Source: Heterodontus francisci (taxonomy: Eukaryota). From it: 64,000 nucleotides of DNA. Of this stretch, positions 55,265 through 58,370 are shown in pieces (the first letter of the stretch is position 1; each line of letters opens with the position of its first letter). The translations under genes were made by a program, and so were the position numbers. A model generated the notes under the pieces. The model saw nothing but the letters and a program-made list of their open reading frames with translations, was not told where the DNA came from and did not search any database. Where the stretch lies: the NCBI RefSeq assembly GCF_036365525.1, contig NC_090411.1, forward strand, positions 31,636,432 to 31,700,431, written 5' to 3'.

Positions 55265-58370
<3,106 letters not shown>

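Follow-up and report, generated by a model that had tools for sequence, protein, structure and literature searches.

IRPs block ferritin translation through the IRE. The 64,000-nucleotide stretch of Heterodontus francisci DNA analysed here (the window, meaning the whole 64-kb stretch) covers one end of array A, in which about 85 ferritin genes stand in tandem. It raises the question of whether these genes still have an IRE and whether one of them, copy F, keeps the remains of one as a G/T-rich 20-mer in its predicted 5' leader. The initial annotation held that no copy has an intact IRE and that copy F keeps a decayed relic at the position expected of an IRE.

Two ferritin arrays and their promoters

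Array A occupies approximately 31.645–32.249 Mb of C41, where the stretches analysed contain 91 exon groups, 84 of them with exon 1 and 68 intact. A sister array, array B (C41, 26.67–26.84 Mb), has 14 copies, 13 of which are intact, and a search of the 6.0-Gb genome with exon 2 of copy F gave 117 matches. Six intact four-exon ferritin genes, all on the minus strand, lie in the window. Five of these are copies B (17408..20571, ATG at 20571), C (26239..29175, ATG at 29175), D (36268..40311, ATG at 40311), E (44965..48300, ATG at 48300), and G (60316..62528, ATG at 62528), none of which has an IRE. The other is copy F (55265..58141), with exons at 58141–58040, 56824–56678, 56142–56017, and 55411–55265. 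The terminal copy, on the same strand (8965..9713), is broken; its exon 1 consists of the first nine codons, exon 2 is missing, and exons 3 and 4 are kept. The window also has long ORFs at 49339–53240, 34187–35902, and 32092–32943 on the minus strand and at 10010–10735 on the plus strand. These resemble LINE retrotransposon proteins, and the element at 49339–53240 has two long open frames. Between 31.69 and 31.96 Mb of C41 the copies are mirrored about an orientation switch at about 31.82 Mb (for example, copy F and copy 31959295 are 99% identical over 196 nt), and this arrangement is a large inverted duplication.

The intact copies of array A are under purifying selection, with a within-array dN/dS of 0.18 and 67 distinct proteins among the 68. 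The seven ferroxidase ligands (E27, Y34, E61, E62, H65, E107, and Q141) are intact in 64 of these 68 copies, including F. Residue 62 is E in all 68 intact copies of array A and K in all 13 intact copies of array B, and the array B proteins are likely to be ferroxidase-dead partners for array A subunits. Intronless retrocopies of members of both arrays were found on C3, C5, C10, C32, C36, and C48, which implies transcription in the germline.

A TATA-like box in copy F (58218..58224, minus strand) starts 83 nt 5' of the ATG. The initial annotation had placed such a box about 70–85 nt before each ATG, and in all six intact window copies it does start 75–83 nt upstream; over 79 array leaders the distance from box start to ATG is 64–88 nt (5th–95th percentile). 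Upstream of the box is a promoter common to arrays A and B (58225..58370, minus strand), with a repeated ATTGG and a TGATGTCAT box. We regard the repeated ATTGG as CCAAT-box-like. Promoters of the two arrays align with z 9.0. Array promoters gave no alignment with those of the neighbouring IRE-bearing ferritin gene described below or of FTH (p > 0.35 in 10 of 10 tests). An upstream ATG is present in 38 of 79 array A leaders and in many copies lies directly before the start codon.

Absence of the IRE from the array leaders

To look for IREs we used Rfam models, a model built for this genome, folding, and pattern scans. Rfam scans gave eight matches at E ≤ 10 over the whole window and five over 58120–58260, which contains the F leader, and none of these was an IRE. 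Genome-wide, where 82 candidates were scored, the same search found at least four IREs: in the ferritin gene at C41:32278910, in a heavy-chain gene on C14, and in two retrocopies. The gene at C41:32278910 (hereafter the IRE gene) is a four-exon ferritin directly adjoining array A and its IRE is perfect. We built a shark IRE model from these four sequences and ran it over 937,568 bases. There were three strong matches (60.2, 57.1, and 37.8 bits), all outside both arrays, the first two being the model's own training sequences; the remaining 11 matches scored 17.2 bits or less. With filters off, the model gave 14 matches at E ≤ 10 in the window, the best at 14.7 bits and none at the F motif. The leaders of both arrays were without a match, which bears out the earlier view that no copy has an intact IRE.

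Structural features gave the same picture. An IRE is defined by a CAGUGH loop (PMC3048577), and no CAGTG occurs past +28 in any leader examined. A 5-bp upper stem with a C bulge or UGC/C loop is absent from F, the leader of which folds into an unrelated weak hairpin; against shuffles its folding z is –0.58 compared to –3.74 for a true IRE. Scanning 3 kb upstream of 102 ATGs for the hairpin gave 23 matches with at most one mismatch, and the sole match closer than 430 nt was the IRE of the IRE gene. A 14-letter IRE pattern had 86 matches genome-wide versus 21 for a control.

An IRE could also lie on an upstream non-coding exon spliced to these genes, and with transcription starts predicted rather than mapped, the array genes might still be iron-regulated in this way or through a non-canonical IRP site. 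One perfect C + stem + CAGUGU hairpin does occur 1,991 nt upstream of one of the 102 genes, but it is not conserved, and the model has no match upstream. The intronless retrocopies on C48 and C5 follow genomic leader sequence without a break as far as about –45 to –53. In addition, contigs from two of six presumed-RNA runs (X1 and X2; share 0.05–0.09 for the six) join exon 1 to exon 2, and the 5' loose end of the X1 spliced contig matches one of the genomic leaders letter for letter (30 of 30 letters shown); such contigs cannot show transcription starts, and none of the spliced contigs reached the F leader. Because both the retrocopies and the spliced contig continue directly into genomic leader sequence, no upstream exon shows, and we consider unseen regulation of either kind very improbable. 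The IRE is thus almost certainly absent from the array leaders, and the data support a loss that is old and common to the copies. The initial annotation went on to suggest that the founder of the array escaped IRP control. This is a likely consequence of the absence of the IRE, and, as judged from the sequence, the array mRNAs very probably escape such control.

Origin of the 20-mer in copy F

The 20-mer lies at 58171..58190 on the minus strand. Two other leader motifs resemble parts of it: the E-type motif (48327..48342, minus strand) is 5 nt shorter and matches its 5' half, and the C-type motif (29205..29219, minus strand) is 6 nt shorter and matches its 3' half. The letters and coordinates of all three were as first reported (58190–58171, 48342–48327, and 29219–29205), and so was the identity of the F motif to the IRE core at 14 of 20 letters, which holds against the core of the IRE gene. 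This ungapped match has a p of 0.0125 when taken alone and a family-wise p of 0.16 over 33 leader types (34 types minus one shorter than 50 nt, as also in the inversion and free-end tests below). A score of 14 was reached in six of 74 leaders, all of them F-type (eight of 82 leaders, having no TATA-like box call, were left out of this count). Gapped local alignment to the leader of the IRE gene gave a mean z of 0.10 over the 34 types, with three at p < 0.05 and F itself at p 0.29.

The initial annotation saw a hint of a micro-inversion in the F motif. If the 5' upper-stem segment is inverted in place, the match does rise to 18 of 20 letters, a score that in 1.84 million windows was reached elsewhere by the IRE alone. 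With fixed ends, the family-wise frequency of such a match was 0 of 1000 in dinucleotide shuffles, 3 of 1000 in trinucleotide shuffles, and 0.1–0.15% among decoy queries, for ends and a kind of edit that were chosen after the match was known. When the 34-nt IRE was used with free ends (150 rounds each), p was 0.02 with dinucleotide and 0.12 with trinucleotide shuffles, and allowing a deletion in place of the inversion gave 0.03 and 0.19 (150 rounds each). The improvement by a single inversion stands, but the looser nulls reach it more often. The 17 fixed letters of F recur at six other sites in the genome, and no ferritin sequence lies within about 0.75 kb of any of these.

The position of the motif differs from that of true IREs. 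The IRE core lies 50 nt past the TATA-like box in the IRE gene, 54 nt past it in the C14 gene, and 50 nt past it in a pseudo-exon at the far edge of the array, versus 34 nt for the motif in F, which does not bear out the claim that the motif is where an IRE is expected. A retrocopy of the IRE gene on C1 starts about 33 nt after that gene's TATA-like box; by this measure the F motif would begin at the cap and a lower stem would be without room. Compared to the ferritin 5' IRE (Rfam RF00037, IRE_I), F has 14 letters of the core in common but lacks the CAGUGH loop, the upper stem, and a model score, and its spacing is different.

We also examined the history of the leader. The F-type copies (n = 10) form one shallow clade (SH-aLRT 100); of the 82 array leaders considered, two had no TATA-like box call and one, misassigned, was left out of later tests. 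The F motif occurs in one of 34 leader types, one that is nested and mosaic, and does not appear as the ancestral state within the array, where root support is weak. A single look-up by place, aimed at leaders outside this array, turned up no look-alike of the motif. In G/T-type leaders the segment before GAA is 18 nt long in F and 10–13 nt long in other types. Eighteen of the 34 types are of a different, non-G/T kind, and rooting the tree with array B places them closer to the base (unstarred branches, 81–89 bootstrap); a single clade of G/T-type leaders is rejected (AU p 3e-6). The non-monophyly of these leaders and the unstarred branches of the promoter tree indicate that gene conversion blurs ancestry; the CDS tree barely resolves the array, with 47 of 90 branches open.

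The promoter places copy F with E, and intron 1 places it with C/D. Informative sites at which F equals E versus C number 27 and 10 upstream of the motif and 26 and 38 downstream of it (p 0.002), and for E versus D the ratios are 25:8 and 25:39 (p 0.0007). The comparison with copy 32240511 is weaker (p 0.057–0.14), as is the signal with the sister copies of F. In a free break scan the best break fell at –50 to –29/–27, on the motif, in five of six C/D comparisons in each of two ranges, with permutation p from under 0.002 to 0.054 (–250..170) and from 0.008 to 0.25 (–250..300). Against three other copies the best break was mostly elsewhere and weak. The motif is also too well preserved for its supposed age. 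Array A is separated from the IRE gene by a dS of 1.23 and from array B by one of 0.79, and under neutral decay at 0.4 changes per site the probability of keeping at least 18 of 20 letters is 0.03; neutral decay amounting to some 0.4 or more substitutions per site would have left the F motif less intact than it is. In a DNA search for more leader-bearing retrocopies, the 40 candidates scored, out of 94, were all array copies.

E-like sequence upstream, C/D-like sequence downstream, and a best break on the motif together suggest that an out-of-register crossover made it. Such a crossover, in a TGT run, would have fused two leaders, an E-type one contributing its 5' half and a C/D-type one its 3' half, and the product would happen to have the 20-nt length that resembles an IRE. 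The F 20-mer, likely an E-type × C/D-type TGT-repeat junction, is probably a recent join of two G/T repeats and a look-alike of an IRE. The decayed-relic claim is not supported, on four counts: the motif is confined to one recent clade, its spacing is off, a recombination break lies on it, and it is too clean for neutral decay.

Two readings would retain some IRE sequence. In one, F keeps a true IRE fossil in which the 5' upper stem was inverted in place in the founder, and the other copies lost it through deletions. The 18 of 20 letters recovered by one inversion, rare in the fixed-end nulls, speak for this, as do the derivation of the E- and C-type motifs from F by one deletion each and the likelihood of an IRE-bearing ancestor. 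We nevertheless find a fossil quite unlikely, since p rises to 0.02–0.12 with free ends and 0.03–0.19 with a deletion allowed, the spacing to the TATA-like box is 16–20 nt short, and the inverted piece is not the loop between the hairpin arms; the fixed letters recur at unrelated sites, the motif is restricted to a single leader type, and the recombination break maps to it. The other reading is that only the 3' arm survives, GTTTGAA of the G/T-type leaders being the IRE remnant, perhaps the leftover of a deletion that ran from one GTGTT repeat to another, and the 5' half of F being due to chance. Copy 31830167 equals the expected deletion product at 13 contiguous letters, the spacing to the box is better (44 nt in the IRE gene versus about 38–45 in the array), and the mean deletion-model score over leader types, which are related to each other, is above that of shuffles (0/150 and 1/150). 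But the family-wise p is 0.25 (about 0.16–0.43 for a score of 14), and the 18 types that are unrelated in kind lie, with weak support, nearer the root of a tree that has array B as outgroup. Moreover, even the closer-kin arrays A and B have leaders that do not align (mean z 0.34) despite clearly related promoters. A surviving 3' arm therefore seems unlikely, and the repeat junction is the reading that we carry forward.

Loss of the IRE and comparison with known ferritins

A genuine IRE relic is present at the far edge of the array. The hairpin at C41:32261227–32261262 (plus strand) has CAGUCC as its loop, stands 50 nt after a TATA-like box and before a decayed ferritin exon 1, the pseudo-exon mentioned above, and reaches 37.8 bits with the shark model; it folds in the manner of an IRE (z –2.48). 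The change to CAGUCC breaks the C1–G5 loop pair, which is described as functionally important in PMC3048577. The pseudo-exon is most like the gene at C41:32259658 (z 7.5) and array A (z 5.1), compared to a z of only 0.7 with the IRE gene. Because an array-related pseudo-exon still carries an IRE at 50 nt, the array lineage likely had one, and the arrays are likely to descend from an IRE-bearing ancestor that lost it.

Several other features were seen at this edge. The CAGUCC hairpin is far better kept than its exon, and a further ferritin of the same orientation follows 3.8 kb downstream of it. The gene at C41:32259658 (minus strand) is an intact IRE-less ferritin matched by contigs in four of four runs, with the ferroxidase ligand changes E61K and H65Q. 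A decayed IRE in its leader was considered and set aside, the weak leader alignment to the pseudo-exon (z 2.5, p 0.024) being only suggestive. At C41:32265097 (plus strand) there is a four-exon ferritin without the usual ATG, its reading frame being open into a GC-rich 5' extension. Counted from the nearest ATG, this extension has 59 aa; it is Arg-rich, has no acidic residues, and resembles a mitochondrial presequence. The divergent four-exon ferritin at C41:32310856 (plus strand) has lost several ferroxidase ligands, has no IRE match, and is possibly light-chain-like.

In the history that we propose, a single early loss of the IRE would have preceded the separation of arrays A and B, and array mRNAs would be translated regardless of iron, with output set by the common promoter and copy number. 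The proteins would then probably serve to stock iron in the ovary or egg. A Greenland shark ferritin cluster is reported to have ovary-specific expression (Sahm et al., 10.1101/2024.09.09.611499), and Yang et al. 2026 (PMC13214024) report transcription of some shark ferritin copies in both fin and blood, so that the ovary would not be the sole site of expression. If about 100 copies are IRE-less, their translation cannot track cellular iron. This would suit programmed bulk storage, such as in large yolky eggs, and a link between ferritin expansion and longevity would need rethinking; the published reading takes the expansion to serve the flexible buffering of iron and the control of ferroptosis (PMC13214024). 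A more far-reaching scenario is an IRP-independent system of about 100 genes in cartilaginous fishes, more than 250 million years old, that arose from one mutation of a single IRE, with F displaying the founding micro-inversion and the pseudo-exon an earlier near-intact stage. We regard this as rather improbable. Without confirmation from other species, the supposed relic in F contributes little to this picture. It also illustrates that G/T-rich leaders can imitate IRE fossils.

Shark ferritin arrays themselves and IRE-less ferritins as such are already published. The term "IRE" has no occurrence in the main texts of 10.1101/2024.09.09.611499 and PMC13214024, and a literature search, with most subscription journals outside its reach, found no report of IRE loss in shark ferritins. 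The published clusters ("FTH1b" in PMC13214024) resemble the present arrays in being large and tandem, one big and one or two smaller, common to sharks, and mostly full-length. In a quick tree (SH-aLRT 88–91), the clade of the array proteins takes in many other shark proteins, one from a sawfish, and probably one from a chimaera. The array is a putative orthologue of the published clusters by this protein kinship; the one synteny marker looked at was a glycogen synthase, 6 Mb away.

Among ferritins of known structure, the array protein P0017 matches vertebrate M- and H-chains (PDB 4mjy, 1mfr, and 5jkk) at E of about 1e-82, with M and H scores within 3 bits of each other, so that sequence search assigns no chain type. 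Like the array, two other ferritins are IRE-less and used in particular tissues: FTMT of mammals (PMC8393899) and the yolk ferritin of snails (PMC10799875). The array proteins differ from both in having 173–176 aa with no presequence, signal peptide, or insertion, and their genes in having three introns and an approximately 85-fold amplification. Mammalian FTHL17, a germ-cell ferritin that is multi-copy in mouse, can also be likened to the array (PMC7760355). It carries E62K and has no ferroxidase activity; array A keeps E62, and array B has K62.
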